Assembly (NCBI GenBank): GCA_964538685.1
Contig: CAZIFD010000001.1
Span: forward strand, 13,221 to 77,220
DNA: 64,000 nucleotides
Source of the DNA: an uncultured Bdellovibrionales bacterium
GTDB lineage: Bacteria; Patescibacteriota; Minisyncoccia; Moranbacterales; UBA2206
Reading direction: 5' to 3'
Shown here: piece by piece, positions 9,445 to 59,435 of the stretch
Layout: every line of letters begins with the position of its first letter
How positions within the stretch are numbered: the stretch's first letter is position 1
The notes under the pieces: generated by a model
The model's input: only the letters and a program-made list of their open reading frames with translations
Told to the model about the DNA's origin: nothing
Database searches by the model: none
Position numbers and translations under genes: made by a program

Positions 9445-9477
<33 letters not shown>

Positions 9478-9503
9478 CCTCCCAAGAGTCCACATCGACG
9501 GAG

Positions 9504-9563
<60 letters not shown>

Positions 9564-21044: not shown

Positions 21045-21120
21045 TTTTTATAAATATTTTTTAATTAATTTCAAAAAAGGTACAGTTTGAAGGGGAAACT
21101 GTTAAGACCTAAAAAGAAAA

Positions 21121-23367: not shown

Positions 23368-23416
23368 ATTTTTTTCTGTCATTCACATATTATTAATAAA
23401 AAACTAACACAAAAAA

Positions 23417-23683: not shown

Positions 23684-23745
23684 AAAAATTTGAAAAAGAT
23701 GGTGGGGCAATCTTATTTCTGATAAGATTGCCCTGATTTAAAGCT

Positions 23746-38231: not shown

Positions 38232-38678
38232 ATGTGGGCAAAAAACTTAACAGGTATTAATGATGGAATTTTTAGAACTATTAATGGCAACTCCGATGAG
38301 ATGATTGGGGTGGGGAGATGTATGAAGGCGGGATTTCCTTGTTCACGTGCCGATGTAACCAATGGAAGATATGATGCTATTATTGATGTGGGAAATAATA
38401 AACTTCTCAGGGTGCAAATAAAAGGCACATCTGGCGGTAGTGTTAGTTTTACTGGAGGAGGCAGAAGTGGAAAGCAGATTAGCAGGGAAGTCAAACAAAG
38501 AACTTATAAATATTCTCCGAATGATTGTGATATAATTTTAGTTGTTGATGGCAGAAGCGGAGAGTGTTATATTATTCCAATTGAGGATGTTCAAAAAATG
38601 AGCGTTTCTAATTCGCTGGAAAAATTAAAAGCTTATAGGGAGAATTGGGATTTGCTTAAAAAATTGGCTGGAGTTTAA
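38232..38678 (+). CDS. candidate restriction endonuclease (small PD-(D/E)xK-like protein) convergent with the m5C methyltransferase
   Basis: 148 aa; RYDAIIDVGNNKLLRVQIKGTSGG...CDIILVVDGRSGECYIIP is compatible with a D...(E/Q)xK nuclease core. Placement C-gene -> this ORF -> <- MTase with a 4-bp 3' overlap. The assignment comes from context. Confidence 0.35.
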   Translation: MWAKNLTGINDGIFRTINGNSDEMIGVGRCMKAGFPCSRADVTNGRYDAIIDVGNNKLLRVQIKGTSGGSVSFTGGGRSGKQISREVKQRTYKYSPNDCDIILVVDGRSGECYIIPIEDVQKMSVSNSLEKLKAYRENWDLLKKLAGV

Positions 38679-45319: not shown

Positions 45320-45862
45320 ATGTCCAAACCGGAAAAAAAATTTGTGGATGATGATTTGCAAGGAGCTGTGGAGTTTCTGAATAGCACTTCAGAAAAAATC
45401 ATTGACACCACACGAAATGTTGACAGTCATGCCAATGTTCTTTTGGGATTGGGAATGGCGGTTTTTGCTTTGGCCATCAATGAAATGATGACCTCGGAGA
45501 AATTGCATATCACTTTTTCTCTGATTGCTTTTTTTTCGGGAGTAAGTTCTATTGTAGCGCTTCTTGCTATCCGTCCGCCACGATTTTTGATTAAAAAAGG
45601 CCAAAAAGAAAGTTTAATGTATACCCGAGAAATCGCTTCTTTTGAATCTTCTGAAAAATATGCCCAAGCGCTTAAAAAAACTGTTTCTTCGGACGACAGT
45701 CTTTTTAATGAATTTGCCACCGAGATTTACAATCTTTCTCGCTATTACTATTTGCCCAAAAGAAAATTATTTTCTCTTTCCAGAAATATTTTTCTTTTTG
45801 GAGTGGTTTTGAGTTTGTTTGTGCTTCTTTTGGAAGTCAAATTTAAATTAAATATTTTTTAA
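45320..45862 (+). CDS. hypothetical membrane protein (3 TM)
   Basis: 180 aa ORF with hydrophobic segments. Confidence 0.45.
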   Translation: MSKPEKKFVDDDLQGAVEFLNSTSEKIIDTTRNVDSHANVLLGLGMAVFALAINEMMTSEKLHITFSLIAFFSGVSSIVALLAIRPPRFLIKKGQKESLMYTREIASFESSEKYAQALKKTVSSDDSLFNEFATEIYNLSRYYYLPKRKLFSLSRNIFLFGVVLSLFVLLLEVKFKLNIF

Positions 45863-45867: not shown

Positions 45868-46632
45868 ATGAATAAATTAGTAGTTGGTAATTTGAAGATG
45901 AATTTGGTTTCTCCGGAAGAAAGAGAAAAATATATTGAACTTTGCAAAAGGGAAATAAAGGGGAAAAAACTGGAAAAAATAGAAATGGTTCTTTGTCCGC
46001 CTTTCGTTCATTTGGAAAATTTTTCTAAAAAATTACCCAAAAAAATTTTTTTGGGCGCCCAAGATTGTTTTTCTGAAGAAAAGGGATCCTACACCGGGGA
46101 AATTTCTCCTTCAATGCTTAAAAATTTGGGTTGCGAATTTGTCATTTTGGGACATAGCGAGCGAAGGCGCTTTCAAGGAGAAACCGAAGAAGAAATTGGA
46201 CTCAAAGTTTCCGCTTCGCTCAAGGCCGGACTCTCTCCGATCATTTGTATAGGAGAAAATATTCAAGAAAGAGAGTCGGGCGAATTTGCGAAGATAATTG
46301 CGGAAGAACTTCTAAGTGCCCTAAGCAATCTCAAGCCGGTTCAGTTGGAAAAAATAGTTGTTGCCTATGAACCAATTTGGTCGGTTGGAACAGATGTTGT
46401 TCCGGCTTCCAATGACATAATGGGTGCCAAGTTGCTTATTCGCAAAGTATTGATTGATAATTTTGGAAAAAAATATGGAAATTTACCTCGGATAATTTAT
46501 GGTGGAAGCGTGAGCTCAAAAACAGTTGAAGCGGTTTGCATCAAATCGGATATGGACGGAGTGCTTGTTGGAAGAGAAAGTCTTTTTCCTGGTGAGTTTA
46601 TGCGTATTGCAGAAATAATTGATAAAAATTAA
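45868..46632 (+). CDS. tpiA: triosephosphate isomerase
   Basis: LVVGNLKMN, ILGHSERR, IYGGSV. Confidence 0.85.
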   Translation: MNKLVVGNLKMNLVSPEEREKYIELCKREIKGKKLEKIEMVLCPPFVHLENFSKKLPKKIFLGAQDCFSEEKGSYTGEISPSMLKNLGCEFVILGHSERRRFQGETEEEIGLKVSASLKAGLSPIICIGENIQERESGEFAKIIAEELLSALSNLKPVQLEKIVVAYEPIWSVGTDVVPASNDIMGAKLLIRKVLIDNFGKKYGNLPRIIYGGSVSSKTVEAVCIKSDMDGVLVGRESLFPGEFMRIAEIIDKN

Positions 46633-46637
46633 AAAAT

Positions 46638-47501
46638 ATGATTGTCAAAGTCAAAGATATTTTGGAAAAAGCAAAAACTGAAGGATACGCAGTTGGAGCT
46701 TTTAACACAACCAACTTGGAAATCACCCAAGGAATAGTTGAGGCGGCTAGTGAGATGAAATCGCCTATCATTATTCAAATCACTGAAAAGACCATGGATT
46801 ATGCCGGAGGACGGATGATTTTTGAAATTATCAGAAAGTTAGCCGAAGACTATTGTCCAAACACTCAGATTGGAATTCATTTGGATCACGGAAAAAGTAT
46901 GGAAATAGTGCAACGGGCGGTGGAAATCGGTTTTTCTTCAGTGATGTATGACGGATCCAGAAAGGATTATGCTGACAATGTTCGCATTACCAAGTCAGTT
47001 GTAGATTATTGTCACGGAAAAGAAGTCTTTGTTCAGGGAGAGTTGGGAAATGTGCCATATCTTAGCGAACAACAATCCGGAGAAGTGGATTGGGATAAAT
47101 ATATGACTGTTCCCGAGGAGGCAAAAAAATTTGTTGAAGAAACCGGAATTGACGCTTTGGCGGTGGCCATTGGGAACGCTCATGATTTTTTCAAAGAAAG
47201 AGAGGTTCCAGATTGGGATAGATTGGCTAAAATTAAATCACTAATTAATATCCCGATAATTTTGCATGGAGCTTCGGATTGGGAAGACGGAAAAGCTGCA
47301 GAAGCCGTGAGGCAAGGAATAAATTGTTTTAATGTGGATACTAACACTCGGTTGGCGTTCACTAACACGCTTAGTCGGCTTTTCAAAAACAATGGTGATG
47401 CTGGATTTGATCCGCGAAAATATTTGGGTCAAGCTCGCGAAGCGGTCAAGGATAGTGTCAGAAAAAAGATAGAGCTTTTTGGCAGTGCGGGAAAAATATA
47501 A
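46638..47501 (+). CDS. fba: class II fructose-bisphosphate aldolase
   Basis: AVGAFNTTNLE, IHLDHG, ILHGASD. Confidence 0.85.
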   Translation: MIVKVKDILEKAKTEGYAVGAFNTTNLEITQGIVEAASEMKSPIIIQITEKTMDYAGGRMIFEIIRKLAEDYCPNTQIGIHLDHGKSMEIVQRAVEIGFSSVMYDGSRKDYADNVRITKSVVDYCHGKEVFVQGELGNVPYLSEQQSGEVDWDKYMTVPEEAKKFVEETGIDALAVAIGNAHDFFKEREVPDWDRLAKIKSLINIPIILHGASDWEDGKAAEAVRQGINCFNVDTNTRLAFTNTLSRLFKNNGDAGFDPRKYLGQAREAVKDSVRKKIELFGSAGKI

Positions 47502-47509
47502 AAACAAAA

Positions 47510-47959
47510 ATGAAAACCGTTCAAAAAATTCTTTTGGAATATGAACCGGAAAAAAGAAACTTACTTTCAGTTCTTCGGGAAATAAATTCCGAGTTCGGAT
47601 ATATTTCGGAAAAATCAGCGAAAGTGGTGGCGGACTATTTTGAATTGCCGATGTCTCAAGTTTTTGAAACAGCTTCTTTTTATGATCTTTTGGAAACAAG
47701 AGAGGTTTCCGGAATTGACATAGAAGTTTGTTTCGGCGGGGGATGTTGCATTTCCGGTTCCGGAAAAATAATTAAAGAAATTGAAAAAATTTTCGGAATC
47801 AAAGAGGGGGATATGGCAAGCAAAAAAATAAGACTGCGAAAAATGAGTTGTGTCGGAATGTGTGATGAAGGACCAGTCGTCAAAATTAACGGAAAAATTT
47901 ATACCAAAGTGGATAAAAATAAATTGGAAAAAATTATTGCCGAAGTCGCAATTTTGTAG
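47510..47959 (+). CDS. NuoE/HoxE/HydC-like [2Fe-2S] thioredoxin-fold subunit
   Basis: CFGGGCCISGSGKI ... MSCVGMCDEGPVVKI. Confidence 0.8.
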   Translation: MKTVQKILLEYEPEKRNLLSVLREINSEFGYISEKSAKVVADYFELPMSQVFETASFYDLLETREVSGIDIEVCFGGGCCISGSGKIIKEIEKIFGIKEGDMASKKIRLRKMSCVGMCDEGPVVKINGKIYTKVDKNKLEKIIAEVAIL

Positions 47960-47961
47960 CA

Positions 47962-49203
47962 ATGATTCAAACAAAAAAAGAAATAAAAATATTAACCAAT
48001 CATTGGGATCAAATAAATCCGAGGAGCATCAAGGATTATTTGACAATGGGCGGATACGAGTCTTTGAAAAAGTTTCTTTTTGAGATGACAAGTGAAGAAG
48101 CTCTTTTTGAAATTGAAAAATCCGGTTTGGTTGGTAGGGGCGGGGCTGGATTTTCAACTGGCAAAAAAATGCGAATGGCAATTGAAAGTTTGGAAAAAAT
48201 CAAATATTTCATTTGCAATTTGGATGAATCAGAACCGGGAAACTGGAAAGATCGTTTGCTTGCCGGAAAAAATCCCCATTTGCTTTTGGAGGGAATAATT
48301 TTAGAAGCTTTGATAATCGGCGCCAAAAAGGCCATTATTTATATCAACGGCAACTTTGAAAAACAAAAAGAACTTTTAGAGTTTGCTGTTTCTGAAGCGA
48401 TCCAACATAATTTTCTGGGAAAAAAGATTTTGGGTTCAAAGTATTCTTTGGAAGTGGATATTTTTTCCGGTGCTGGTGCCTATATTTGCGGGGAAGAAAC
48501 CGCTCTTATTAATTCTTTGGAAGGAAACCGTGGGGAACCAAAAGCGCGTCCGCCTTATCCAACCGAAAAAGGATTTCTGGGAAAACCGACTGTAATTAAT
48601 AATGCTGAAACAGTTTCCAATTTACCTTGGATTATTCAAAATGATGGCGAAGCTTTTTCTCAAATTGGTTCCCAAAAATCTCCCGGAACCAAATTATTTT
48701 GTTTAAGCGGAAGATTTGAAAAACCTGGAGTTTACGAAGTACCAACTGGAATAACTTTGGAAGAATTGGTGGAAAAATATGGTGGCGGAATTGAATTGGG
48801 AAAAAAATTATGGTTTTTACAATTAGGCGGAGCTTCGGGGAGATTGGTTTTGCCGAAAGAAATGAAAACCAAATTGGAATATGATCCGGAAGCGGAATTT
48901 CCTCTTGGAGCGGGATCGGTTTTGGCGGTAACCAAAGAGGATGATATCAAGGAATTGCTTTTGTCTTGGACGGATTTTTTTCGCCGAGAATCTTGCGGAA
49001 AGTGTATTCCGTGTCGGGAAGGAACCTTTCGCCTTTGGGAAATTATGAAACGCTTTCAAGACGGAAAGATATCCGAAGCTGACCAGAAAGCGATACCGGA
49101 AATTATTTGGACTCTGGAAAATACTTCGTTTTGTCCGTTGGGAAAGTTTTCCGCTCAAGGAATAAAAGACGCCGTAGAAAAATTAAAAATTTTATGCAAA
49201 TAA
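47962..49203 (+). CDS. NuoF/HoxF/HydB-like NAD(P)H- and FMN-binding subunit
   Basis: GRGGAGFSTGKKM, CNLDESEPGNWKDR, soluble-ligand-binding domain, ESCGKCIPCREGT [4Fe-4S] site. Confidence 0.85.
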   Translation: MIQTKKEIKILTNHWDQINPRSIKDYLTMGGYESLKKFLFEMTSEEALFEIEKSGLVGRGGAGFSTGKKMRMAIESLEKIKYFICNLDESEPGNWKDRLLAGKNPHLLLEGIILEALIIGAKKAIIYINGNFEKQKELLEFAVSEAIQHNFLGKKILGSKYSLEVDIFSGAGAYICGEETALINSLEGNRGEPKARPPYPTEKGFLGKPTVINNAETVSNLPWIIQNDGEAFSQIGSQKSPGTKLFCLSGRFEKPGVYEVPTGITLEELVEKYGGGIELGKKLWFLQLGGASGRLVLPKEMKTKLEYDPEAEFPLGAGSVLAVTKEDDIKELLLSWTDFFRRESCGKCIPCREGTFRLWEIMKRFQDGKISEADQKAIPEIIWTLENTSFCPLGKFSAQGIKDAVEKLKILCK

Positions 49204-50630
49204 AAATAAACGGAAAAAAATACGAAGTTAATGAAGGCGAAACAGTTTTGGAAGTTTGTCGCCGAAACGGAATCAGAATTCCGACGCTTTGTCATTTTCC
49301 CGGTTTGTCCAAAGAGCAAGTCTGTCGGCTTTGTTTGGTTGAAACCAATCGGAGCGAAAAATTGGTAACCTCGTGCGGATTTAGAGTTTGTGAAGGTTTG
49401 GAAGTTAAAACGGAAAGCGAGCGAATTGAAAAAGCCAGAAAAATAAATTTGGAATTACTTTGGGCTGATCATGCTGGTCGTTGCGCCACTTGCAAAAAAA
49501 ATCGTCGTTGCGAGCTCCAAAATTTGGCCGAAGAATACAAGATTGAAAATTTTCATTTTGTTCCGAGGAGAGGCGATATTACTTCTGAAGAAGAGCTGGA
49601 TTTGCTTGAGGACAATTTGAAAAGAGATTTGGAGGATAACAATAATCCTTGTTTGGAAAAGAAGGGCGAGCTTTGTGTGGAATGTCGGCGGTGTATTCAG
49701 GTTTGTCCGACTCGGGAATTCGGATTCAATTATCGCTCGGGCGATGTCAAAGTGGAAACTCCTTATGGAAAACATTTGGATTGCATATTTTGCGGACAAT
49801 GTGTCAAAATTTGTCCGACTGCTTCTCTCAGTGACAAAAATGATTTGAATAAAATAGTTAATTTGTTGGATGATGTCAAAAAACAAGCTGTGGCAATTGT
49901 TGATCCGACTATTCTAGATTCCGTTTCCAATGAATTTGAAAAAATTGAAAAGAAAGAAGAGTTTATTGGTCTTCTTCGCGAAATCGGATTTGAAAAAGTT
50001 TTTGATTTGAGTTGGGGATTTCACGAATCAGCCAAAAGACAGTCCTTGGAAATTGAAAGAAACAATCATTCTAATTTGATTCTCAGCCATTGTTCAGCGC
50101 TTATTTTTTATATTGAAAAATATTTTCCGGAAATGAAAAAAAATATATTGGAAACCGAAATTCCCGATGAACTTATGGCCAAGAGCATTAAAAGTGAATA
50201 TGTCAAAGAGCGCAAAATAAATTCGGAAGACTTGGTTGTTATTTCCATTTCCTCTTGCGTAGCTAAGAAAAAGATGATTTCTGATAATCTGGATTTTGTT
50301 TTGACGATGCGTGAAGTCGGGCGGATTGCCAGAATAAAAAAAATAAATGAAGAAAAAATCAAAAAATCAGATTTTGACAAGGAAAAGTATTCTTTGGCGG
50401 AAAATCCAAGCGGTCTTTTGAATTCCGGTCAATTGAGCGAGTTGATTGAAGAACAACTTTCCAAAGAAAAGAAACAAAAAATAGCCAAGACTTGGAGTGT
50501 AAAAAATATCAAAACAATTTTGGAAAAAATAAAAACGAAAGAAAAAAATTACAATTTTTGTGAATTGATGATTTGTCCTGGCGCTTGTCAGGGTGGTGGA
50601 GGAAAATCCATAAAAATTAAGGAAAAATAG
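49194..50630 (+). CDS. [FeFe]-hydrogenase-like protein (CpI-type ferredoxin-like N-terminus + compact H-cluster domain with non-canonical L1/L2 motifs)
   Basis: N-terminus: 2Fe-2S (CHFPG..C..C), HAGRCATCKKNRRCE, CVECRRCIQVCP, CIFCGQCVKICP. H-domain: GFEKVFDLSWGFHES..., LSHCSAL (vs TSCCPGW), SSCVAKKKM (vs MPCxxKxxE), MICPGACQGGGG (vs MACxGGCxxGGGQP). The tool ORF start at 49107 overlaps nuoF; the ATG at 49194 is preferred. Confidence 0.7.
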   Translation: MQIKINGKKYEVNEGETVLEVCRRNGIRIPTLCHFPGLSKEQVCRLCLVETNRSEKLVTSCGFRVCEGLEVKTESERIEKARKINLELLWADHAGRCATCKKNRRCELQNLAEEYKIENFHFVPRRGDITSEEELDLLEDNLKRDLEDNNNPCLEKKGELCVECRRCIQVCPTREFGFNYRSGDVKVETPYGKHLDCIFCGQCVKICPTASLSDKNDLNKIVNLLDDVKKQAVAIVDPTILDSVSNEFEKIEKKEEFIGLLREIGFEKVFDLSWGFHESAKRQSLEIERNNHSNLILSHCSALIFYIEKYFPEMKKNILETEIPDELMAKSIKSEYVKERKINSEDLVVISISSCVAKKKMISDNLDFVLTMREVGRIARIKKINEEKIKKSDFDKEKYSLAENPSGLLNSGQLSELIEEQLSKEKKQKIAKTWSVKNIKTILEKIKTKEKNYNFCELMICPGACQGGGGKSIKIKEK

Positions 50631-50834
50631 ATGTGTTTGGCAATTCCGGGAAAAATTAAAAAATTGAAAGGCGAATTGGCAACGGTTGATTTTGACGGAC
50701 TTCAAAAAGAAATCAATGTTTCTTTGGTAGATGCGAAAAACGGAGACTGGGTGGTGGTTCATGCTGGCTTTGCCATTCAAAAACTGGAAGAAAAAGAAGC
50801 GGAAGAAATCAAGGTTTTATTCAAAAAACAATAA
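50631..50834 (+). CDS. hypC: hydrogenase maturation factor HypC
   Basis: MCLAIPGKI N-terminus, 67 aa. Confidence 0.8.
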   Translation: MCLAIPGKIKKLKGELATVDFDGLQKEINVSLVDAKNGDWVVVHAGFAIQKLEEKEAEEIKVLFKKQ

Positions 50835-51325: not shown

Positions 51326-52363
51326 ATGAGAGAAACTAAAAACATAATTGAAAGCATTAATGAAAAAGCGAGACTTATCAGAAAGCCTGTTATTTTTATG
51401 GAGCTTTGCGGGACTCATTCGGAATCAGTGGCGGAAAATGGGCTCAAAAATATTTTGCCGGAAAATGTGAAACTGGTTTCTGGTCCGGGGTGTCCGATTT
51501 GTGTAACCGATCAAGCGGATGTGGATGTGATGGTGGGTTTGGCAAAAAAAGGAATTCCGATCGCTAGTTATGGTGATGCGGTTTCAGTTCCTGGAAGCAA
51601 GGGAAGTCTTGAAACTGCCAGGCAAAACGGAGCCAAAGTTTTTGTGGTTTACGACACAGCAGAGGCGCTTAGACTTCAAAAAAAAGAACCGAATTTGATT
51701 TTTTGGGGAGTTGGCTTTGAAACTACCGCTCCGGCAACTGCTTGGGCAATTAAAAAAGGACTTCGGGTTTTTTCCAGTCATAAAATTTTTCCACCGGCGA
51801 TGAAAGCGCTTCTTTCCGAAAAAGAAACAAAAATTGACGGTTTTTTGAATCCCGGACATGTGAGTGCAATTATCGGAACAGAGGTTTATCAAAATTTTTC
51901 CATTCCTCAAGTGATAGCCGGATTTGAGGCTCAAGATATTCTTTTGGCGATTGAAATGCTTCTTGCTCAAATTCTCAAAAAAGAAAAAAAAGTGGAGAAT
52001 GAATATGAAAGATTGGTGAAGAAAAATGGAAATGAGAAAGCGCAAAAGTTTGTCAGGGAAGTTTTTGAGACGCGAGACAGTTCTTGGCGGGGGCTGGGAG
52101 AAATCAAAAAATCGGGACTCAAAATCAAAGAAAAATATAGGAATCAAGATGCGGAATTTGTTTATCAAAAAGAAATTGAAGAGATTAAAAAAAATAGCCA
52201 AACCAAAAAATCGGCATGTCGTTGTGGAGAAGTTTTGCGGGGAAAAATCAAGCCCCAAAGTTGTCCGCTTTTCGGAAAAGCTTGCTCGCCGGATAATCCT
52301 CAGGGAGCCTGCATGGTTTCCAGAGAAGGGAGTTGCAATATAGAATATAGGTATGAAAAATAA
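51326..52363 (+). CDS. hypD: hydrogenase maturation factor HypD
   Basis: MELCGTHSE, GPGCPICV, C-terminal CxxC motifs. Confidence 0.85.
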   Translation: MRETKNIIESINEKARLIRKPVIFMELCGTHSESVAENGLKNILPENVKLVSGPGCPICVTDQADVDVMVGLAKKGIPIASYGDAVSVPGSKGSLETARQNGAKVFVVYDTAEALRLQKKEPNLIFWGVGFETTAPATAWAIKKGLRVFSSHKIFPPAMKALLSEKETKIDGFLNPGHVSAIIGTEVYQNFSIPQVIAGFEAQDILLAIEMLLAQILKKEKKVENEYERLVKKNGNEKAQKFVREVFETRDSSWRGLGEIKKSGLKIKEKYRNQDAEFVYQKEIEEIKKNSQTKKSACRCGEVLRGKIKPQSCPLFGKACSPDNPQGACMVSREGSCNIEYRYEK

Positions 52364-52781: not shown

Positions 52782-53771
52782 ATGAAGCAAAACCAATCAA
52801 AAAATATTTCTCTGGAAGAAGGAGCGGGAGGCAAAAAATCGGAAGATTTGATTTCTGAAATCCGGCAGGCTTTTGGAACAGGAAAAAAATGGCAGAATAT
52901 TGAAGACGACGGAGCGACTTTCAAGCTCGGAAAAGAAAATTTGGTTTTCACAGCCGACGGTTTTATTGTGGACCCGATTTTTTTTCCTGGAGGCGACATT
53001 GGAAAAATTGCTGTTTGCGGAACACTCAACGATTTGGCGGTGATGGGAGCGTGCCCTGTTGGATTGTCGCTTAGTCTCATCATTGAAGAAGGTTTTTCCC
53101 GAGAGGATCTCAAAAAAATTATTCAATCAATTGCCAAAATTTCCAAAGAAACCGGAGTGCCGATTGTGACCGGTGATACCAAGGTGACGGAAAAAGGCAA
53201 GTTGGACAAAATTGAAATCACAACTTCCGGAGTGGGCTTGGCTAAAAAAATTATTACCAACTCCGGAGCGCGAGCAGGAGATCAGGTGATTGTTTCGGGT
53301 GACCTTGGGGAACACGGCGTGGCCCTGCTTTCCAAAAGGTTTAATTATAAAACTAAAATCAAGAGCGATTGTCAGCCATTGGTTCAAGAAATTCAAAAAG
53401 TAGGCAAATATCTGTCGGCTTGCAAGGATCCGACCCGAGGTGGATTGGGAGCAATTCTTAATGAAATTGGGGAGAAATCAAAAGTAAAAATTATTATTGA
53501 TGAAAAAAACTTGCCATTCAAAAAAGAAACGGAAGCCCTTTCCGGACTTTTGGGAATAGACAAATTTTCTTTTCCTTCGGAAGGTCGGTTTGTAGCGACG
53601 GTTCCTGAAAAAGATTCCAAAAAAGTTTTGAGCGTTCTTAGGAAATTTAATCCTGAAGCCAAGATCATTGGAAAAGTGGAGAGAGGACAAGGGGTTTATC
53701 TTGAAACTAAATTGGGAAGTCTCAAAAAAATTGAAACTCCGAGAGGAAAACTAATCCCGCGGATCTGTTGA
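52782..53771 (+). CDS. hypE: hydrogenase maturation factor HypE (AIR-synthase-related)
   Basis: VCGTLNDLAVMGACPVGLSLSLIIEEGF, GDQVIVSGDLGEHG. Confidence 0.85.
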   Translation: MKQNQSKNISLEEGAGGKKSEDLISEIRQAFGTGKKWQNIEDDGATFKLGKENLVFTADGFIVDPIFFPGGDIGKIAVCGTLNDLAVMGACPVGLSLSLIIEEGFSREDLKKIIQSIAKISKETGVPIVTGDTKVTEKGKLDKIEITTSGVGLAKKIITNSGARAGDQVIVSGDLGEHGVALLSKRFNYKTKIKSDCQPLVQEIQKVGKYLSACKDPTRGGLGAILNEIGEKSKVKIIIDEKNLPFKKETEALSGLLGIDKFSFPSEGRFVATVPEKDSKKVLSVLRKFNPEAKIIGKVERGQGVYLETKLGSLKKIETPRGKLIPRIC

Positions 53772-54965
53772 CAAATAAAAAACAATTTGTCCGAAAGAAA
53801 TTCCGGCGTCGCCAGCGGGAATTTTTTTATTTAAATAAACATTTTGCGATTTCAGATATTCGCTGATTATTTTGTTGGTGGAAAGACCGCCGGAGGCGAA
53901 GATATTGGGAAGACTGGATTCCCGATCAAGTCGGGAATGACAATTGGAAACAATTTTAAACAAACCTTCAACAATATAATTTTGAACTGTGGCAGCCAAT
54001 CTTTTTTTGTCTCTTTTTCGTACATACGCTAGTACATACGAGAGTAAGTATGTTGTGTTAAGAATATTTTTCTTGATTATTTTTGGTTTCAAATCGGAAA
54101 AAGGTTGAGTAGAATTTTTTTCCAAGAGGATGGTTGGTTCGTGCTTAAAGTTTCTTTCGTTCTGGCAAAAGCCTAAAAGAATTGAAACAGTATCCAGAAT
54201 CCGTCCGGCAGAAGAAGTTTCCGGGCAATTGAATTTTTGTTCTAATTGATTCCAAAGAAGTTCAAATTCGTTTTGGGAATAATATTTTTTTAGAAATTTA
54301 TAGATGGATTTTTTTTGTATCTCTTTCTTGTCATTCCCGCGGAAGCGGAAATCCAGTGCGGAAGCTTTGAGTTTTGAGACAGGATCCCCGTTTTCACGAG
54401 GATAACATTTTTTCAATATGCCAATAAGCATACGAGCCGGCTCTTTGATAGCCAGTTCTCCGCCAAGCAAAAACTGATTTTCCAGATGTCCAATTCGTTC
54501 AATTTTTTTGTTTTTTAAATCTATTTTGAAAACTTCTCCTCCCCAAATTTTTCCGTCAGTTCCCAGTCCGGTGCCATCCATAACGATGGAGTAATTGATA
54601 TCAATAAGTTTGTGATTGGAATTGCTTATTAATTTGTCTCCAATTGAAGAAAAAGTGTGAGCCAAATGATGCTGGACTTGAATATGTTTAGCTTTGAATT
54701 TTTTGGCTAATTTTTCTCCCCAAAGAGTGGTTCTGAAATCAGGATGAAGATCAGTCAAAATAAAGTTTGGTTTGAGCTTATTGTTTTTAAGGAATTTCAA
54801 AACTTCTTGTTGGAAATTTTGCCAATTTTTTTCTTCCAAAAGATCGCCAAAATTTTGGGAAAAAAATATTTTTCCATCCCTAAAAACCGAAAAATTTCCG
54901 GCTGATTCGGCGCCAAGCGCCAAAAGGATTGAATTATTTTTAAATTTCGTATCAAATTCAAGCAT
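53751..54965 (-). CDS. HypF-like carbamoyltransferase consisting only of the Kae1/TsaD-like domain (no acylphosphatase, Zn-finger or YrdC domains); contains two in-frame palindromic-element insertions
   Basis: ILLALGAESAGNFSV...SQNFGDL, VQHHLAHTFSSIGD, IVMDGTGLGTDGKIWGGEVF, NIFASGGLSTN. The palindromes at 53916-53942 and 54329-54354 encode CHSRLDRES and LDFRFRGND. Confidence 0.65.
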   Translation of the reverse strand: MLEFDTKFKNNSILLALGAESAGNFSVFRDGKIFFSQNFGDLLEEKNWQNFQQEVLKFLKNNKLKPNFILTDLHPDFRTTLWGEKLAKKFKAKHIQVQHHLAHTFSSIGDKLISNSNHKLIDINYSIVMDGTGLGTDGKIWGGEVFKIDLKNKKIERIGHLENQFLLGGELAIKEPARMLIGILKKCYPRENGDPVSKLKASALDFRFRGNDKKEIQKKSIYKFLKKYYSQNEFELLWNQLEQKFNCPETSSAGRILDTVSILLGFCQNERNFKHEPTILLEKNSTQPFSDLKPKIIKKNILNTTYLLSYVLAYVRKRDKKRLAATVQNYIVEGLFKIVSNCHSRLDRESSLPNIFASGGLSTNKIISEYLKSQNVYLNKKIPAGDAGISFGQIVFYLSTDPRD

Positions 54966-55102: not shown

Positions 55103-55774
55103 GTGCGTATTTTGATTGTTGAAGATGATGAACGAATAGCCAATTCTTTAAAAAAAAGTCTGGAAGAGGCTTGTTTTTCAGTTGATATTTCCGGGGACGG
55201 CGAGGAGGGTTCTTTTTTGGGGAGAACCAATAATTATGATTTAATCGTTTTGGACAATATGTTGCCCAAAAAGAATGGGCTAAGAGTTTGTCAGGAGATT
55301 AGAAAGAAAAATAAAGCAACAAAAATATTGATGCTTTCGGTCAAAAAGGAAATCCAAGAAAAAGTAGCACTTCTTGATGGCGGAGCGGATGATTATATGA
55401 CCAAGCCATTTTCTTTTTCGGAACTTCTTTCCAGAATAAAAGCTCTCTTGCGTCGGTCGGACATATTTGCAGATGACTCTTTGAATGTTCAAGACCTGAC
55501 TCTTGATCTGAAAACTTTTGAAGTGAGACAAGGAAAAAGAATTATTAACCTTACCAGAAAAGAATTTATGTTGCTGGAATTTTTAATTAGAAACATTAAT
55601 AGAGTAGTGACGCCGGAAGAGATTATGGAACATGTTTGGGATGGAAATCTGGATGTTTTTTCCAACACACTCCGTTCTCATATGGGTAATTTGAGACGCA
55701 AAATTGAAAAAGAAGGAAACAAAAAATTAATTGAAACAATTTGTGGCCGAGGTTATATTATAAGAGCGGATTGA
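55103..55774 (+). CDS. OmpR-family response regulator (receiver + winged-helix), GTG start
   Basis: RILIVEDDERIANSLKK, LDNMLPKKNG, C-terminal winged helix RKEFMLLEFLIRN...GYII. Confidence 0.85.
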   Translation: MRILIVEDDERIANSLKKSLEEACFSVDISGDGEEGSFLGRTNNYDLIVLDNMLPKKNGLRVCQEIRKKNKATKILMLSVKKEIQEKVALLDGGADDYMTKPFSFSELLSRIKALLRRSDIFADDSLNVQDLTLDLKTFEVRQGKRIINLTRKEFMLLEFLIRNINRVVTPEEIMEHVWDGNLDVFSNTLRSHMGNLRRKIEKEGNKKLIETICGRGYIIRAD

Positions 55775-56045
55775 GTTTATTCTTTTTTTATATTTTCTTT
55801 ATTTTGATTTTAGTATAATAGGAATATCAATCCGAGGTCGGGGATTGATATTCAATTAAAACAACAATAAAAAAATGAAAAAAGAAGTTATTAAAAAACT
55901 TTTAACTAGCAAAGTTGCCAGAAAGACTTCCACTCTCAGCGCTTTTGTTCTGAGCGTAGCCAGTGTAGCCACTCCCTGGGAGGGCGCAGCTTAAATTTTC
56001 AAAAATTTTTATACAAGCGGGCAATTAATATTTTTTATAAAAACA

Positions 56046-57464
56046 ATGTTTCAAAAATTTTATAAATCACTTATTTTAGTTGCTCGTTTTTTTTATGATA
56101 AATTTTTGAAACCAAAATCAAGAAACGATGATTTGAAACGCAAAGAATTTATTTTAAACATATTATTGGGATCAATAATTTTTTTATTGGGAATATTTTC
56201 TTTTTTTATTGTTGGCAGATATTTAGAAGAAAAGGGGAATTTTAACGGAATTCCCTTGGTTTATTTTTTCTCCATACTCGGATTTTTTATTATTTTATAC
56301 TTGCTCTCAAGGTGCAGACTTTTCGTTTTGAGCTCCTATTTTTTTATCGGGGTGCTTTTTTTGTCAATTACCGGCGGTGTTTATTATTGGGGAATAGATC
56401 TTCCTCAAGTTTTATTGTCATACGCTCTTGTTATTGTAATGTCGGGAGTGCTTGTTGATACGGCTTTCGCTTTTTTTATAACACTAGCAATAAGCGTCAG
56501 TTTGATTGTTATTGGTTATTTGCAAATAAATAATATAATTTTTGTTAATTCTTATTGGAGATATGAATTTGCTACGATGAGCAATGCTATAGAATTTTCC
56601 ATTACACTGTTAGTTATTGCCGTCGTTTCTTGGCTTTCTAATCGGGAAATTGAGAAATCTCTGAAAAGAGCTAAGCGGTCGGAAAAAGAGCTCAAAGAGG
56701 AGCGAGATTCTTTGGAAATAAAAGTGGAAAAAAGAACGAAAGAATTGCAGAAAGCTCAGATTGAAAAAGTGCGTCAACTTTATCGTTTTGCCGAGTTTGG
56801 AAGACTTTCATCGGGACTTTTTCATGATCTTTCCAATCACTTGACGGCCTTGTTTTTAAATTTGGAAATGGCCGATCCTAAAAAACAAAAAGAGGCTGGC
56901 AAAACTAAAGAATATTTGGAAGAAGCTAGAATAATAATGAATCAAACAGAGGATTTTATTGAAGCTATGCAGAAACAGCTTCGCAGAGAAGGAAATTTAA
57001 AAGTGTTCTCTCTCAATAAAGAAATAGAACATGTAATTCAAATTTTTGGCTATAAAATGAATCAGGAAAAAATCCGCTTGGAATTTGTGGCGGAAAGCGA
57101 AGTAATAATGTTTGGAAGTTTAATTGGATTTAATCAAATTGTCACCAATTTGCTTTCCAACGCTGTGGATGCTTGTTCTCGGGTAGATGAGGCGAGGGAG
57201 AGTAGATTTATTGAAATTAGAATTGGACAAACTAAAGAAAAAGCCATTTTGATTGTCAAAGATTCAGGTTGCGGAATTAAGAAAGAACTAAATGAAAAGA
57301 TATTTGATCCCTTTTTTACTACCAAAGAAATAGGCAAGGGAACAGGAATTGGACTTTCTTCCACCAAGAAAATTGTAGAAAAGGATTTTGGCGGAGTTAT
57401 TCATTTCAAGAGTCAAGTGGGCGAAGGAACTGTTTTCACGGTGGAACTACCAATAAAAAAATAA
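56046..57464 (+). CDS. sensor histidine kinase (5-6 TM sensor domain, HisKA, HATPase_c)
   Basis: H-box LSSGLFHDLSNHLTAL; N/G boxes NLLSNAVDA, KDSGCGIKKELNEKIFDPFFTTK, GTGIGLSSTKKI. Confidence 0.8.
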   Translation: MFQKFYKSLILVARFFYDKFLKPKSRNDDLKRKEFILNILLGSIIFLLGIFSFFIVGRYLEEKGNFNGIPLVYFFSILGFFIILYLLSRCRLFVLSSYFFIGVLFLSITGGVYYWGIDLPQVLLSYALVIVMSGVLVDTAFAFFITLAISVSLIVIGYLQINNIIFVNSYWRYEFATMSNAIEFSITLLVIAVVSWLSNREIEKSLKRAKRSEKELKEERDSLEIKVEKRTKELQKAQIEKVRQLYRFAEFGRLSSGLFHDLSNHLTALFLNLEMADPKKQKEAGKTKEYLEEARIIMNQTEDFIEAMQKQLRREGNLKVFSLNKEIEHVIQIFGYKMNQEKIRLEFVAESEVIMFGSLIGFNQIVTNLLSNAVDACSRVDEARESRFIEIRIGQTKEKAILIVKDSGCGIKKELNEKIFDPFFTTKEIGKGTGIGLSSTKKIVEKDFGGVIHFKSQVGEGTVFTVELPIKK

Positions 57465-59435
57465 ATGGAAGAAAAAATTAAAAAAACAATCAAAGAAAGC
57501 ATCAACTTTATTTTCCAAAAACAACAAAAAGACGGAAGTTTTTTCAGTTTATCATCGGAAAAACAGAACCTTTCTTCAGGCGAAAAATACACAACTTCTC
57601 TTGGCGCTTCTTTTATTTTGAGTTGCTTGTCGGGATTTTCCGATTTTACTTCGGAAAAAATCAAGAAAAAAATTGTCAGATTTTTGCTCAAAGAAAAAAG
57701 TGATATGAATTCATTTAATTATTGGAGTCGTTCATCCAAGGAAGCTCGTGAGCTTCCTTATCCAGATGATTTAGACGATACTTTTTGCGTTTTAGCGTCC
57801 TTGTTTTCGTATGATAAAAAAATAATTAATGCAGAGATATTGACTAGTGTAATCTCTCTTTTGTCTCATTCTGAGATCCAAGAGGGCGGTCCGTATCAAA
57901 CTTGGTTAGTCGGAGAGAATGCCGGCAAGGAATGGCGAGACATTGACTTGGCCGTTAATTCCAATGTGGCTTATTTTTTATTTCTCCAAGAAATTGAACT
58001 TCCTAATCTTGGATCCTTGATTGAAACTGCCATAAAAAAAGAAAAATATTTTTCTCCCTATTATGCTTCTCCTTTTTCAGTTATTTATTTCATCTCCCGT
58101 TTTTATCAAGGAAAAAATAAAGACAAAATAATAGGATATCTTTGGAAAGAAAAAAATGAAAATCATTCTTGGGGCAATTCTTTGGATAGTGCTTTAGCAA
58201 TTTCCGCTCTTTTGAATTTGGGTTTTTCGGCCAAAAAATTGGAAAAAAGTATAAATAATTTGATCGCAGAAAAAGGCGAGGCGGAGAATTGGAAGGCGTA
58301 TTCTTTGGTGGTGGAAAAAATCAATGGCAAGACCAAAACTTATTCCGGTTCCAATGAGCTTACAACAGCTTTTTGTCTTGAAGCTATCGGAAAATATTCA
58401 AAAAAAATTAAAACTGAAAAAAACAAAAACGGAGGAAAGGAGAAAATTTCTAAAAAAGAGCAAAAAATTTATGAAAGAGTAATTCGTCTTTTTGAGTCCA
58501 GAAAAATAAAATGTTTTGGAAATTCAGCTAAGGAACCGGAATTAGATTTGAAAAAAATTCTCAGGAAAAAAAATAGTCAATCAGTGGTTCTTTTGCCTTT
58601 CCATTTTCAAAAATCACTAGGTAAAAAAGGCGAGAAAATTCCGACGGAAATGGTAGTGCAATTAGGTCTGGCTAATTTGTTGGGTTGGATAGCCTATACT
58701 ATTTATGATGATTTTTTGGATGAAGAAGGTGAAGCAAAAAAAATAGCTTTAGCCAATTTGTGTCTTCGGGAATTGACCAAAATATTTTACCTTATTTTGC
58801 CGGACAAAGGAGATTTCTTATCTATTTTTGAAAGGATCATGGATGAAACCGAATCGGCTAATTTTTGGGAGATCAAAAATTGCCGAATAGAAATTTCTGA
58901 GGATAATCTTTCACTGCCGGCAAAATTGCCGGATTATCAAAAAAATATTTTTTTGACCAAGCGTTCAATGGGACACGCTCTTCCGGCTTTGGTCTGTTTG
59001 TCATTTCTCGGTGAAAAAAATGATTCTCCGGATATGAAAAATTTAATTATTTTTTTTCAAAATTACTTACTTGCCCGTCAACTTAACGATGATATGCATG
59101 ACTGGGAAGATGATTTGAAGAGGGGACAATTAAGTCCTGTTGTAAGCGCTATTTTAGAAACTTGGAAGAATAAAATAAGCCGTAAAAAAATAAATCTAAA
59201 AAAAGATTGGGAAAAATTGCAAGAAATATTTTGGTATGAAACAGTTTTGGCAATTTGCCGGGAGATTTTGTATTCAGTTAAAAAGGCTAGACGAGTAGCA
59301 AAAAAAATTTCCTTGGCAGAAAGCCAAAATTTTTTTGAGGAGTTGATTTTGCCAATGGAAAGATTGGCGCAAAATACTATTTCTGAACAAAAAGAGATGA
59401 GTGATTTTTTGGAAATTTACAAAAGAAAAAAATAA
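57465..59435 (+). CDS. two-domain terpene-synthase-like protein: N-terminal class II cyclase-like alpha/alpha-toroid (DxDDT-like motif) + C-terminal class I-like domain (DDxxD/E and NDxxHxxxE-like motifs)
   Basis: N-domain: QKDGSF, YPDDLDDTFCVLASL, ENHSWGNSLDSALAISALLNLG. C-domain: WIAYTIYDDFLDEEGE and LARQLNDDMHDWEDDLKRGQ. Motif-level inference only. Confidence 0.45.
   Translation: MEEKIKKTIKESINFIFQKQQKDGSFFSLSSEKQNLSSGEKYTTSLGASFILSCLSGFSDFTSEKIKKKIVRFLLKEKSDMNSFNYWSRSSKEARELPYPDDLDDTFCVLASLFSYDKKIINAEILTSVISLLSHSEIQEGGPYQTWLVGENAGKEWRDIDLAVNSNVAYFLFLQEIELPNLGSLIETAIKKEKYFSPYYASPFSVIYFISRFYQGKNKDKIIGYLWKEKNENHSWGNSLDSALAISALLNLGFSAKKLEKSINNLIAEKGEAENWKAYSLVVEKINGKTKTYSGSNELTTAFCLEAIGKYSKKIKTEKNKNGGKEKISKKEQKIYERVIRLFESRKIKCFGNSAKEPELDLKKILRKKNSQSVVLLPFHFQKSLGKKGEKIPTEMVVQLGLANLLGWIAYTIYDDFLDEEGEAKKIALANLCLRELTKIFYLILPDKGDFLSIFERIMDETESANFWEIKNCRIEISEDNLSLPAKLPDYQKNIFLTKRSMGHALPALVCLSFLGEKNDSPDMKNLIIFFQNYLLARQLNDDMHDWEDDLKRGQLSPVVSAILETWKNKISRKKINLKKDWEKLQEIFWYETVLAICREILYSVKKARRVAKKISLAESQNFFEELILPMERLAQNTISEQKEMSDFLEIYKRKK

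Follow-up and report, generated by a model that had tools for sequence, protein, structure and literature searches.

In a 64,000-nt stretch of a genome assigned to the Patescibacteriota (order Moranbacterales; assembly GCA_964538685.1, contig CAZIFD010000001.1, positions 13,221 to 77,220; hereafter, the window), three adjacent genes encode proteins similar to NuoE, NuoF and HydA, the catalytic [FeFe] hydrogenase subunit, and are followed by genes for the maturation and the subunits of a [NiFe] hydrogenase. We favor, with a probability of about 0.6, the interpretation that these genes together encode an NADH-linked [NiFe] hydrogenase similar to Hox and to the NiFe-HydABCSL enzyme of A. mobile, in which the equivalent of HoxU is a decaying HydA that has kept only the [4Fe-4S] remnant of its H-cluster. 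The NuoE-like, NuoF-like and HydA-like proteins would form the NADH-oxidizing and relay half of a five-subunit cytoplasmic enzyme, the catalytic half would be a pair of small and large subunits of the group 3b-like type that is encoded downstream, and the 478-aa HydA-like protein would no longer make or split H2. A previous reading from the sequence alone had described the three genes as a trimeric, electron-bifurcating HydABC-like locus with non-canonical H-cluster motifs, and had proposed that the HydA-like protein may act as a regulatory subunit or as a HoxU-like electron-transfer partner. The synteny, the match to HoxU and the degenerate active-site pocket described below favor the role of a HoxU-like partner of the nearby [NiFe] hydrogenase.

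A HydA-like protein with a degenerate active site

The active-site motifs were read from HMMER alignments to solved HydA structures and from a MAFFT alignment of 173 sequences that included CpI rebuilt from PDB alignments, with the numbering verified at 20 landmark residues. CpI numbering is used below unless indicated otherwise. The HydA-like protein has the full M3 architecture, that is, the Pfam domains Fer2_4 and NADH-G_4Fe-4S_3, two [4Fe-4S] sites and Fe_hyd_lg_C. Its N-terminal part (F-domain) carries the sites for a [2Fe-2S] cluster, a His-ligated [4Fe-4S] cluster (H93, C97, C100 and C106 of the protein) and two ferredoxin-type [4Fe-4S] clusters, and all these ligands are invariant across the family of relatives described below. 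The HoxU model NF005745 matches the F-domain at 6e-39 (model positions 6-211 of 238), below its curated cutoff. Judged from its sequence, the F-domain is equivalent to a whole HoxU or to the N-terminus of NuoG.

The C-terminal part (H-domain) matches Fe_hyd_lg_C (PF02906) over the full length of the model (138 bits, 5.9e-40, positions 2-245 of 245). The HMMER and MAFFT alignments agree with the sequence-only reading that all four cysteines of the H-cluster are kept, namely C300 (50091-93), C355 (50256-58), C499 (C461 of the protein, 50574-76) and C503 (C465 of the protein, 50586-88). The surroundings of these cysteines have changed. Motif L1 reads LSHCS, in which C299 is replaced by His (50088-90) and C300 is kept; motif L2 reads SSCVAKK, in which M353 (50250-52) and P354 are both replaced by Ser, and C355 and K358 are kept; motif L3, ELMICPGACQGGGG, retains M497 together with C499 and C503. 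Thus, the replacements of the proton-relay Cys by His and of the L2 Met by Ser, originally deduced from a gapless alignment, were recovered in the gapped alignments, which yielded no canonical TSCCP or MPCxxKxxE motif. The supposed replacement of the L2 Glu by Met was not: E361 lies where 9 aa are deleted (CpI 360-368). CpI 433-461 are deleted as well, so that the shortening of the region between L2 and L3 is real and amounts to 38 aa rather than the estimated 30 aa or so. The C-terminal tail, CpI 517-573 (57 residues, PF02256), is absent as reported, the protein ends 13 aa after its C465, and its length is 478 aa instead of 479 aa.

The other changes in the H-domain are A230D (D237 of the protein, 49902-04), E279Q, S319L, R286N, Q325D and F417L. 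Altogether, the proton-path residues C299, E279, S319 and R286 have been lost, and E282 alone is retained. The previously noted similarity of the substitutions to those of sensory or slow [FeFe] hydrogenases is correct. The group D enzyme TamHydS shows C299A, M353S, M497L, E279F, S319L and R286K, retains E282, binds an H-cluster, and turns over H2 slowly (PMC11803613). Neither a PAS domain nor a C-terminal four-Cys cluster was found by Pfam in the HydA-like protein of the window.

The NCBIfam models for [FeFe] hydrogenases score far below their cutoffs (156 vs 406 for TIGR02512, 303 vs 765 for NF040763 and 200 vs 900 for NF040762), the best match being that to NF040763, 'group A6, NADH-dependent' (3.9e-90). 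Among the solved proteins, the best relatives detected by HMMER are the bifurcating HydA1 proteins of T. kivui and A. woodii. An AlphaFold2 (AF2) model based on 36 family members has predicted local distance difference test (pLDDT) values above 90 over residues 220-470, and a Foldseek search matched it best to HydA of T. kivui, HydA of A. woodii and CpI. Given the confidence of the model and these matches, the fold of the H-domain is predicted to be intact.

Three classes of relatives and relaxed evolution of the H-domain

A search over 5.8 billion proteins returned about 95 clusters of relatives of 450-500 aa with 45-68% identity, the named ones of which are from Moranbacteria and Parcubacteria. 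It also retrieved canonical proteins (about 585 aa, about 40% identity) and proteins without a Pfam H-domain (about 340 aa). From species-representative genomes, a scan yielded 80 loci together with flanks of 10 kb. The 172 non-identical Patescibacterial proteins were sorted by length into three classes. Class III (n = 33) consists of canonical HydA proteins, which have every residue, or nearly so, at all 22 positions examined. In class I (n = 101), the type found in the window, the cluster cysteines are kept and the residues of the pocket and the proton path are changed. Class II (n = 38) consists of shorter proteins, 34 of which lack L1 and L3 and carry Lys, Asn or Arg at position 355.

The retention of the cluster ligands in class I is nearly complete: C300, C355 and C499 are each present in 100 of the 101 proteins and C503 in 98, and position 358 is Lys or Arg in 100. 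P231, P324 and, mostly, M497 are also retained. Position 299 is never Cys (His in 49 proteins, Phe in 25, Tyr in 15 and Asn in 8), position 353 is Ser in 98 proteins, position 279 is hydrophobic and E361 is deleted. Furthermore, position 230 is Asp in all 101 proteins, and position 325 is Asp or Glu in 98. Class II retains Asp230 (33/38) and Ser353 (36/38) despite the loss of the cluster cysteines, and these two residues seem, from their conservation, to be under a constraint unrelated to the cluster.

The two domains have evolved under different constraints. The average pairwise identities of the F-domain and the H-domain are 0.68 vs 0.43 in class I, 0.73 vs 0.52 in class II, and 0.72 vs 0.69 in class III. 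Thus, the class I H-domain has been freed from most of its constraint, with its four cysteines remaining nearly invariant. The class II proteins keep a conserved remnant of about 120 aa.

A neighbor-joining (NJ) tree without support values was calculated from 218 columns of the F-domain and included ten outgroup HydA proteins and CpI. In this tree, the Patescibacterial proteins form one clade apart from the outgroup HydA proteins and CpI; classes I and II together make up a monophyletic group inside class III, and class II in turn branches inside class I. NuoF, NuoE, FBA (class II fructose-bisphosphate aldolase) and TIM (triose-phosphate isomerase) show the same split of the genomes into those with class I or II and those with class III, which fits a single switch followed by vertical descent. 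The HydA-like protein of the window appears to descend from a canonical Patescibacterial group A [FeFe] hydrogenase. One metagenome-assembled genome (MAG), JAUXSI01, contains a class I protein (L028) and a class III protein (L041) on different contigs, which reflects either a real co-occurrence or mixed binning.

A minimal flavoprotein predicted to be non-bifurcating

The NuoF-like protein matches nuoF_fam at 9e-126. It contains eight cysteines, and its sole cluster-type motif is the quartet C345/C348/C351/C391, which was assigned to the N3 cluster; no extra N- or C-terminal Fe-S domain was found in its 413 aa with Pfam or from the positions of the cysteines. Bifurcating HydB/BfuB subunits are defined by the additional clusters B2-B5, which reside in an N-terminal [2Fe-2S] domain and a C-terminal domain with two [4Fe-4S] clusters (PMC9304861). 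The non-bifurcating homologues, which include Hox, complex I and Hyd1ABC of S. wolfei, lack B2-B5 and do not use ferredoxin (PMC9304861 and PMC7311640). Lacking B2-B5, the NuoF-like subunit is, by its domain content, a minimal flavoprotein of the non-bifurcating type, and the view of the locus as an electron-bifurcating HydABC fails at this point. The canonical class III operons carry the same minimal flavoprotein, and the ancestral enzyme was therefore probably an NADH-dependent, non-bifurcating [FeFe] hydrogenase. The NuoE-like protein has cysteines at positions 74, 79, 114 and 118, and its best NCBIfam matches are the NuoE and HoxE models (3.6e-24 for HoxE), all of them below cutoff.

Gene order and synteny with hyp and [NiFe] genes

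The genes from TIM to hypC (45868-50834) form a single co-directional, closely packed string (Table 1), in which the distances between the genes for TIM, FBA, NuoE, NuoF, the HydA-like protein and HypC are 5, 8, 2, −10 and 0 nt, respectively. Thus, the open reading frames (ORFs) of the NuoF-like and the HydA-like proteins share 10 nt, and the stop codon of the HydA-like gene is followed directly by the first base of hypC. The order and the coordinates of the three genes had been given correctly by the sequence-only reading. Since hypC abuts the stop codon of the HydA-like gene, and since the [NiFe] genes follow directly in relatives, the locus is more aptly viewed as belonging to a [NiFe] hydrogenase operon. 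An identical HydA-like protein is on record for five contigs, and the three that are shown come from three different sequencing runs. These copies from separate runs, together with more than 100 relatives with the same pattern, indicate that the gene is not an artefact.

The homologues of the window genes were mapped onto the ORFs of all related loci of the species-representative genomes. The recurring string is TIM-FBA-NuoE-NuoF-HydA'-HypC-(HypDEF)-NiFeS-NiFeL-HypA-GAPDH, where HydA' is a HydA-like protein of class I or II, NiFeS and NiFeL are the [NiFe] small and large subunits, and GAPDH is glyceraldehyde-3-phosphate dehydrogenase. The class I or II gene is followed by hypC, often by hypD, hypE and an inverted, truncated hypF, and then by the genes for the small subunit, the large subunit, the HypA-like protein and GAPDH. 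In class III loci, the canonical HydA gene occupies the same position behind TIM-FBA-NuoE-NuoF and has no hyp or [NiFe] neighbors. Accordingly, hypC or hypD was found downstream in 37 of the 43 class I/II loci vs 0 of the 19 class III loci (Fisher test, 4e-11), and genes for both 3b-like [NiFe] subunits were present within 10 kb in 19 of 29 vs 0 of 15 loci (1.5e-5). The class II proteins that have lost L1, L3 and C355 (34/38) stay in the NuoEF-Hyp-[NiFe] context. Class II has thus lost the cluster and yet keeps the operon, so that the relic cluster is apparently dispensable.

The TIM and FBA genes, with which the packed string of the window starts, are the conserved upstream flank and were found in most loci of classes I, II and III that reach far enough upstream. 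On the downstream side, the conserved flank is the GAPDH gene, which many related loci have after their [NiFe] genes. The closest relative with a good assembly shows the order NuoE-NuoF-HydA'-HypC-(233 aa)-NiFeS-(M10-like)-NiFeL-desulfoferrodoxin-HypA...GAPDH. The ORF of about 233 aa that some loci have after hypC was considered as an additional Fe-S subunit and was rejected, as it has no Cys motifs, is weakly conserved and has no family match.

The genes for HydA' and the small subunit are 8.9 kb apart in the window, and adjacent but unfused in relatives. The sole difference of the window is an insert (55103-59435) that lies between the [NiFe] genes and hypF. It encodes a response regulator, a histidine kinase and a 656-aa protein and was not detected at this position in the related loci examined. 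Its membership in the system is uncertain. The response regulator and the histidine kinase were rejected as evidence for a sensory function, because they are not conserved near HydA-like genes elsewhere. With no PAS domain and no C-terminal cluster in the protein, and with two-component genes that are not conserved in related loci, the regulatory role that had been proposed as one option finds no specific backing.

A few class II loci deviate from the common arrangement. In L063, the order is NuoE-NuoF-HydA'-124aa-GAPDH, and in L040, L044 and L046 even NuoEF are missing upstream.

Table 1. Position, strand and assignment of the genes and domains of the hydrogenase locus and its flanks in the window
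Feature	Position	Strand	Size and evidence
Triose-phosphate isomerase (TIM)	45868-46632	+	Pfam TIM on record for identical contig
Class II fructose-bisphosphate aldolase (FBA)	46638-47501	+	Pfam F_bP_aldolase on record for identical contig
NuoE/HoxE/HydC-like thioredoxin-fold [2Fe-2S] subunit	47510-47959	+	149 aa; PF01257 5e-34, full length
NuoF/HoxF/HydB-like FMN- and NADH-binding subunit	47962-49203	+	413 aa; Complex1_51K, SLBB, NADH_4Fe-4S
HydA-like protein	49194-50630	+	478 aa, ATG start (MQIKING); CpI-like M3 architecture
HydA-like protein, F-domain (aa 1-215)	49194-49838	+	Fer2_4, NADH-G_4Fe-4S_3, Fer4_7
HydA-like protein, relic H-domain (aa 216-478)	49839-50630	+	PF02906 positions 2-245 of 245
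hypC, [NiFe] maturation chaperone	50631-50834	+	67 aa; TIGR00074 1.6e-20, above cutoff
hypD	51326-52363	+	PF01924 1e-126
hypE	52782-53771	+	AIRS, AIRS_C
Truncated hypF	53751-54965	-	404 aa; HypF_C, HypF_C_2; TIGR00143 model positions 387-739 of 741
OmpR-type response regulator	55103-55774	+	Pfam, NCBIfam
Histidine kinase	56046-57464	+	Pfam, NCBIfam
656-aa ORF	57465-59435	+	No Pfam or NCBIfam family match
[NiFe] hydrogenase small subunit	59488-60294	+	268 aa; PF01058
[NiFe] hydrogenase large subunit	60312-61571	+	419 aa; RICGICPVVH and DPCISCAVH intact
hypA-like gene	61592-61867	+	About 91 aa from MHD...; PF01155 4e-6, just below cutoff
Glyceraldehyde-3-phosphate dehydrogenase (GAPDH)	61895-62887	+	Gp_dh_N, Gp_dh_C

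The [NiFe] pair and the maturation genes

The window had been said to contain a complete hyp set and a group 3 [NiFe] hydrogenase 9 kb downstream of the HydA-like gene. The hydrogenase is indeed there, at a distance of 8.9 kb, and is 3b-like; the hyp set is incomplete, as no hypB was found in the 64-kb window. Among solved relatives, the large subunit is closest to the alpha subunit of sulfhydrogenase I of P. furiosus (1e-62), followed by HydL of A. mobile (1.5e-46) and HoxH (1e-34). Its best NCBIfam matches are the ShyA/HydA alpha models (247 vs a cutoff of 700), and those of the small subunit are the HydD/ShyD sulfhydrogenase delta models (147 vs 500), all below cutoff. The small subunit contains 12 cysteines, enough for three [4Fe-4S] clusters, like the delta subunit of group 3b. 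By these matches, the dimer is most like group 3b. The length of the large subunit, 419 aa, is nearly constant across the related loci. It ends at the His of DPCISCAVH without a C-terminal extension, and no gene for a maturation endopeptidase was seen.

Genes for the beta (Fe-S) and gamma (FAD- and NAD(P)-binding) subunits of group 3b were found neither in the window nor in the compact related gene strings, which leave no room for them. In the Candidate Phyla Radiation (CPR), 3b-like hydrogenases for which beta and gamma subunits had not been detected were noted before (Jaffe 2020, PMC7304191). The ORFs that recur in addition in related strings were tested and encode a metalloprotease-like protein, a desulfoferrodoxin and a Cys-poor protein without a family match. 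A 3b-like dimer that lacks a diaphorase of its own and is encoded beside a NuoEF-HoxU-like module would most simply form one enzyme with it. In one related locus (L004), the gene between those of the small and the large subunit (13378-14322 of that locus) encodes a protein of about 315 aa that has a coiled coil and a metzincin-like C-terminus (M10, HExxH), and a desulfoferrodoxin gene lies after that of the large subunit (15670-16047). Similar M10-like and desulfoferrodoxin ORFs are present in L009, L013-L015, L019, L025, L031, L042 and other loci, and both are absent in the window.

The hypF gene of the window encodes only the C-terminal Kae1-like carbamoyltransferase half of the protein, without the acylphosphatase and zinc-finger parts, and a hypF-like gene of the same orientation and size is present in related loci. 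The HypA-like protein, which starts with MHD, has no Cys and therefore lacks the usual zinc site; a homologue of 90-91 aa is encoded after the large subunit gene in related loci.

No hydE, hydF or hydG gene was found within the 64-kb window, in agreement with the sequence-only reading, and the only radical-SAM ORF (23746-24438) lies beside nrdD. A motif scan of the Patescibacterial loci revealed no HydF-like ORF and a single CxxxCxxC-bearing ORF of 331 aa, which lies in a canonical locus (L034); a HydF-like ORF was present only in an Ignavibacteria outgroup. The ORFs that follow canonical hydA were considered as maturases and rejected: those of 478-482 aa encode glutamine synthetase, and those of 365 aa and 395 aa encode a mannobiose-phosphorylase-like protein and a glycosyltransferase, respectively. 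Since hydE, hydF and hydG are unlinked even to canonical hydA, linkage cannot settle whether the maturases are present.

Proposed electron path and comparison with known hydrogenases

From the gene context and the cluster motifs, we infer that the five proteins form a complex without a 2Fe subcluster, along which electrons would travel as follows. NADH, produced for example by the GAPDH encoded at the end of the cluster, would reduce the FMN of the NuoF-like subunit, from where electrons would pass via the N3-type [4Fe-4S] cluster and across the F-domain of HydA', with its [2Fe-2S], [4Fe-4S] and His-ligated [4Fe-4S] clusters. The three clusters of the small subunit would then deliver them to the Ni-Fe site, where protons would be reduced to H2, and the reaction would be reversible. 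Bifurcation is not expected, because the flavoprotein lacks the extra clusters required for coupling to ferredoxin. The relic H-domain most likely holds a [4Fe-4S] cluster alone, equivalent to A5 of the A. mobile enzyme, and this cluster might act as a side branch or else serve structure or docking. The small subunit could dock either at the His-ligated cluster, as in Hox and in the A. mobile enzyme, or at the exposed relic [4Fe-4S] cluster, along the ancestral path of HydA. A search for a docking surface revealed that the only fixed differences between the relic or truncated proteins and the canonical proteins are E207D, A230D, D263E, 268L and M353S. All five positions lie at or after the boundary between the F- and H-domains and none lies around the F-domain clusters, so that neither docking model is supported.

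The NiFe-HydABCSL enzyme of A. mobile (NiFe-Bfu, PDB 7T2R) likewise combines HydC-, HydB- and HydA-like subunits with a group 3 [NiFe] pair, a composition known in our case from the genes. In the A. mobile enzyme, HydA has no H-cluster and contains the [4Fe-4S] cluster A5 instead, electrons follow the path FMN-B1-A1-A2-A3-S1-[NiFe], and the branch A2-A4-A5 is regarded as a non-functional remnant of evolution (PMC8880783). The window protein is similar in that the catalytic H-cluster appears to be lost, as judged from the degenerate pocket, and a plain [4Fe-4S] cluster is predicted in its place. Unlike the A. mobile enzyme, however, the window flavoprotein is minimal and lacks B2-B5, the small subunit has 12 cysteines for three clusters rather than one cluster, and the large subunit is closest to group 3b. 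Moreover, the C-terminal domain of the window protein is a recognizable [FeFe] H-domain with the original four cysteines and a full-length PF02906 match, whereas A. mobile HydA aligns to the window protein over the F-domain only (residues 3-213). Finally, canonical, relic and truncated stages coexist in one lineage in our case, unlike in A. mobile.

The HoxEFUYH enzyme (group 3d, PDB 5XF9) shares with the proposed complex the NuoE/NuoF NADH module, the HoxU-type relay and the [NiFe] dimer, and is non-bifurcating and reversible. In contrast to Hox, the HoxU equivalent of the window carries an additional relic H-domain of 260 aa, the large subunit is nearer to group 3b (1e-62) than to HoxH (1e-34), the small subunit has three clusters instead of one, and all Hox models of NCBIfam match below cutoff. 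In the archaeal hybrids of group F or G [FeFe] and group 3f or 3g [NiFe] hydrogenases, an [FeFe]-derived protein, NuoE- and NuoF-like subunits and a group 3 [NiFe] hydrogenase are also encoded together, and they are predicted to form one complex (PMC11216029). However, HydA is fused to the small subunit in the archaeal hybrids and the NuoG-like HydD is a separate protein, whereas the window encodes unfused proteins, with the N-terminus of HydA' as the NuoG-like part. The residues of the H-cluster are conserved in the archaeal proteins, one of which was active after artificial maturation, and the archaeal HydB has extra domains of the bifurcation type, whereas in the window the pocket residues are degenerate and the flavoprotein is minimal. 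In addition, the window proteins are bacterial (Patescibacteria) and, by descent of the HydA-like protein, apparently group A-derived.

The closest [FeFe] model, NF040763, represents the 'group A6' enzymes of NCBIfam, Hyd1ABC of S. wolfei and HydAB of S. aciditrophicus, which have the same minimal flavoprotein. The class III relatives of Patescibacteria resemble this non-bifurcating, NADH-dependent type. The window protein differs from it by its score (303 vs a cutoff of 765), by the loss of the proton relay and the pocket, and by the hyp and [NiFe] genes that follow. The putative sensory enzymes TmHydS (group C) and TamHydS (group D) have also lost the proton-relay Cys and most of the proton path, have M353 replaced by Ser, and keep E282. 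Unlike these enzymes, the window protein has neither a PAS domain nor a C-terminal [4Fe-4S] motif, residue 299 of its family is bulky (His, Phe, Tyr) rather than Ala, Asp is fixed at position 230 and Asp or Glu at 325, the lineage is that of group A, and the partners are NuoEF and Hyp/[NiFe]. The eukaryotic Nar1/NARFL proteins have an H-domain fold with cysteines for [4Fe-4S], no diiron subcluster and no hydrogenase activity. They differ in lineage, domain architecture and role, which is the assembly of cytosolic Fe-S proteins, and are not associated with NuoEF or a [NiFe] hydrogenase.

Alternative explanations

Several observations weigh against an NADH-linked [NiFe] hydrogenase with a relic HydA as its HoxU equivalent. 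The five-subunit complex is a proposal built on gene context and sequence. In the window, the [NiFe] genes are 8.9 kb away from the HydA-like gene, and the two-component system and the 656-aa ORF separate them from the hyp genes. The class II loci L063, L040, L044 and L046 have no Hyp or [NiFe] genes within 10 kb, which hints at further decay or a separate role, and a NuoEF-HydA' unit may work without Hyp and [NiFe] in some genomes. The small subunit with its three clusters is unlike those of Hox and the A. mobile enzyme, and no new class-specific surface is seen on the F-domain. The substitution pattern of the H-domain (M353S, hydrophobic 279, S319L, E282 kept, R286 changed) is close to that of TamHydS, which binds an H-cluster; K358, P231, P324, M497 and the bridging C503 are retained; and the MAG JAUXSI01 carries both a relic and a canonical HydA. 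In addition, the NJ tree that places the relic clade inside canonical HydA has no support values, and the absence of hydE, hydF and hydG refers to the window and the scanned loci.

Some of these observations would fit a stand-alone NADH oxidoreductase composed of NuoE, NuoF and HydA', which would use the relic cluster to reduce ferredoxin, rubredoxin or another acceptor and leave the [NiFe] dimer to another partner. The 8.9 kb with unrelated genes between the two modules of the window, the NuoEF-HydA' genes beside GAPDH in L063, the three orphan genes without NuoEF, the desulfoferrodoxin gene that is often nearby in relatives, and the unchanged surface of the F-domain all point in this direction. 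However, relic and truncated HydA are strongly associated with hypC/D and [NiFe] genes across the lineage, an association that is absent for canonical HydA, the H-cluster residues are lost exactly where the [NiFe] genes are present, and hypC is translationally adjacent to HydA'. Furthermore, neither the window nor the related loci examined revealed another candidate diaphorase for the 3b-like dimer. We consider a stand-alone enzyme possible but unlikely. Rather unlikely, too, is a class I H-domain that has kept a [2Fe] subcluster and provides a slow or H2-sensing [FeFe] site within or alongside the [NiFe] enzyme, by analogy with the sensory enzymes of groups C and D and with the archaeal hybrids of groups F and G. 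Such a site would agree with the retained residues, that is, the four cysteines including the bridging C503, K358, P231, P324 and mostly M497, with the substitutions that mirror TamHydS (PMC11803613), with the confidently predicted fold, and with the co-occurrence of relic and canonical HydA in at least one MAG. The response regulator and histidine kinase genes lie 4.5 kb downstream in the window, and archaeal [NiFe]-associated [FeFe] enzymes were active after artificial maturation although their hosts seemingly lack HydEFG (PMC11216029). Yet residue 299 is bulky and variable (His, Phe, Tyr or Asn) instead of the small Ala of TamHydS, and the carboxylates fixed by K358 (A230D in 101/101 and Q325D/E in 98/101) would be expected to repel an anionic, CN-ligated diiron site; D230 and D/E325 could instead neutralize K358 in an empty pocket. 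The identity of the H-domain is 0.43, compared with 0.69 in canonical relatives, and sister proteins have deleted the whole site and kept the operon. There is neither a PAS domain nor a C-terminal cluster, the pair of two-component genes is not conserved in related loci, and the scans detected no maturase-like radical-SAM or HydF-like ORF in the window and a single CxxxCxxC ORF in the related loci (L034).

A more far-reaching version, in which the relic H-domain hosts a diiron or another small cofactor between the bridging Cys and K358 and the complex is a bacterial [FeFe]/[NiFe] hybrid with two H2-reactive centers, is distinctly unlikely. If true, the degenerate site would serve the [NiFe] module as an H2 sensor or redox gate, and the archaea-only 'hybrid hydrogenases' would be extended to the CPR. 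That the H-domain, or the whole HydA-like gene, is a functionless leftover in the process of being lost is very unlikely. The relaxed constraint on the H-domain and the series of progressively shorter forms are what such decay would produce, but independent assemblies contain the same intact ORF, conservation of the F-domain (0.68-0.73) matches that of canonical enzymes, 98-100 of the 101 proteins retain the four cysteines despite an average domain identity of 43%, and the truncated forms keep their conserved remnant of about 120 aa. A conventional group A3 bifurcating HydABC hydrogenase with unusual motifs is extremely improbable. The order NuoE-NuoF-HydA, the M3 architecture and the best solved relatives, the bifurcating HydA1 proteins of T. 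kivui and A. woodii, fit this assignment, which was nevertheless rejected on the architecture of the NuoF-like subunit, as B2-B5 are missing. Also, the proton relay (C299, E279, S319, R286) is gone, the NCBIfam [FeFe] scores are far below the cutoffs (303 vs 765 and 156 vs 406), and the HydA-like gene is followed by hyp genes, not by hyd genes.

Other features of the window

The 23S rRNA gene (6111-9918) has a length of 3808 nt, compared with 2925 nt of the model, and contains an insertion of about 0.9 kb with an ORF for a LAGLIDADG homing endonuclease (8261-8767). The 5S rRNA gene (10230-10344) follows the 23S rRNA gene; upstream of it, the window contains a gene for a TPR/O-antigen-ligase protein and no 16S rRNA gene. 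The arrangement points to an rRNA operon that is unlinked and has an intron-like insertion, of the kind often described for CPR bacteria. Two overlapping ORFs encode a P-type cation ATPase, 15488-16642 for the N-terminal (E1-E2) part and 16603-17946 for the hydrolase and C-terminal part, which suggests a frameshift, a sequencing error or a truly split gene.

Genes for a RhuM/Fic-domain protein (18657-19637) and an S24 peptidase-like repressor (19769-20434) precede a cluster for NrdR, NrdD and an NrdG-like radical-SAM activase (20592-24438), the activase gene being the only radical-SAM gene of the window. An ORF of 521 aa on the minus strand (38675-40240) encodes an unusual fusion of a LexA DNA-binding domain, an S24 autopeptidase and a complete C-5 cytosine DNA methyltransferase. 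Directly upstream of TIM lies a gene for a 180-aa membrane protein (45320-45862) with a PycTM domain (Pycsar effector transmembrane domain, 2e-9), and no cyclase gene was noted beside it.

Implications

[FeFe] and [NiFe] hydrogenases are unrelated catalysts, and the locus looks like a case in which one has replaced the other in place. An exchange of the catalyst combined with reuse of a NuoEFG-like chassis is known from few cases, namely the NiFe-HydABCSL enzyme of A. mobile and the archaeal hybrids, and the parts and the logic of the proposed enzyme are already known from these systems and from Hox. In the open-access literature searched, three aspects appear to be undescribed: a bacterial, non-bifurcating version in which the HoxU equivalent is still a recognizable [FeFe] H-domain protein; the pairing of such a HoxU equivalent with a three-cluster, 3b-like dimer; and the coexistence, at a single locus across one CPR lineage, of canonical, relic and truncated stages.

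If the proposed enzyme exists, the CPR '3b-like' [NiFe] hydrogenases without beta and gamma subunits (cf. PMC7304191) would have a route by which they are coupled to NADH. The findings also imply a warning, in that calls of '[FeFe] hydrogenase' of the Pfam or HydDB type can wrongly indicate H2 metabolism by this enzyme class in Patescibacterial genomes. The proteins are small and suited to studying what an H-domain requires to accept the [2Fe] cofactor. Above all, three stages occupy one and the same chromosomal position, flanked by glycolytic genes, within a single bacterial lineage: an NADH-linked [FeFe] hydrogenase that is intact, an H-domain with only the [4Fe-4S] cysteines left and accompanied by hyp and [NiFe] genes, and a protein from which the H-domain has been cut away. 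These stages would provide a dated, testable series for the swap of a catalytic module.

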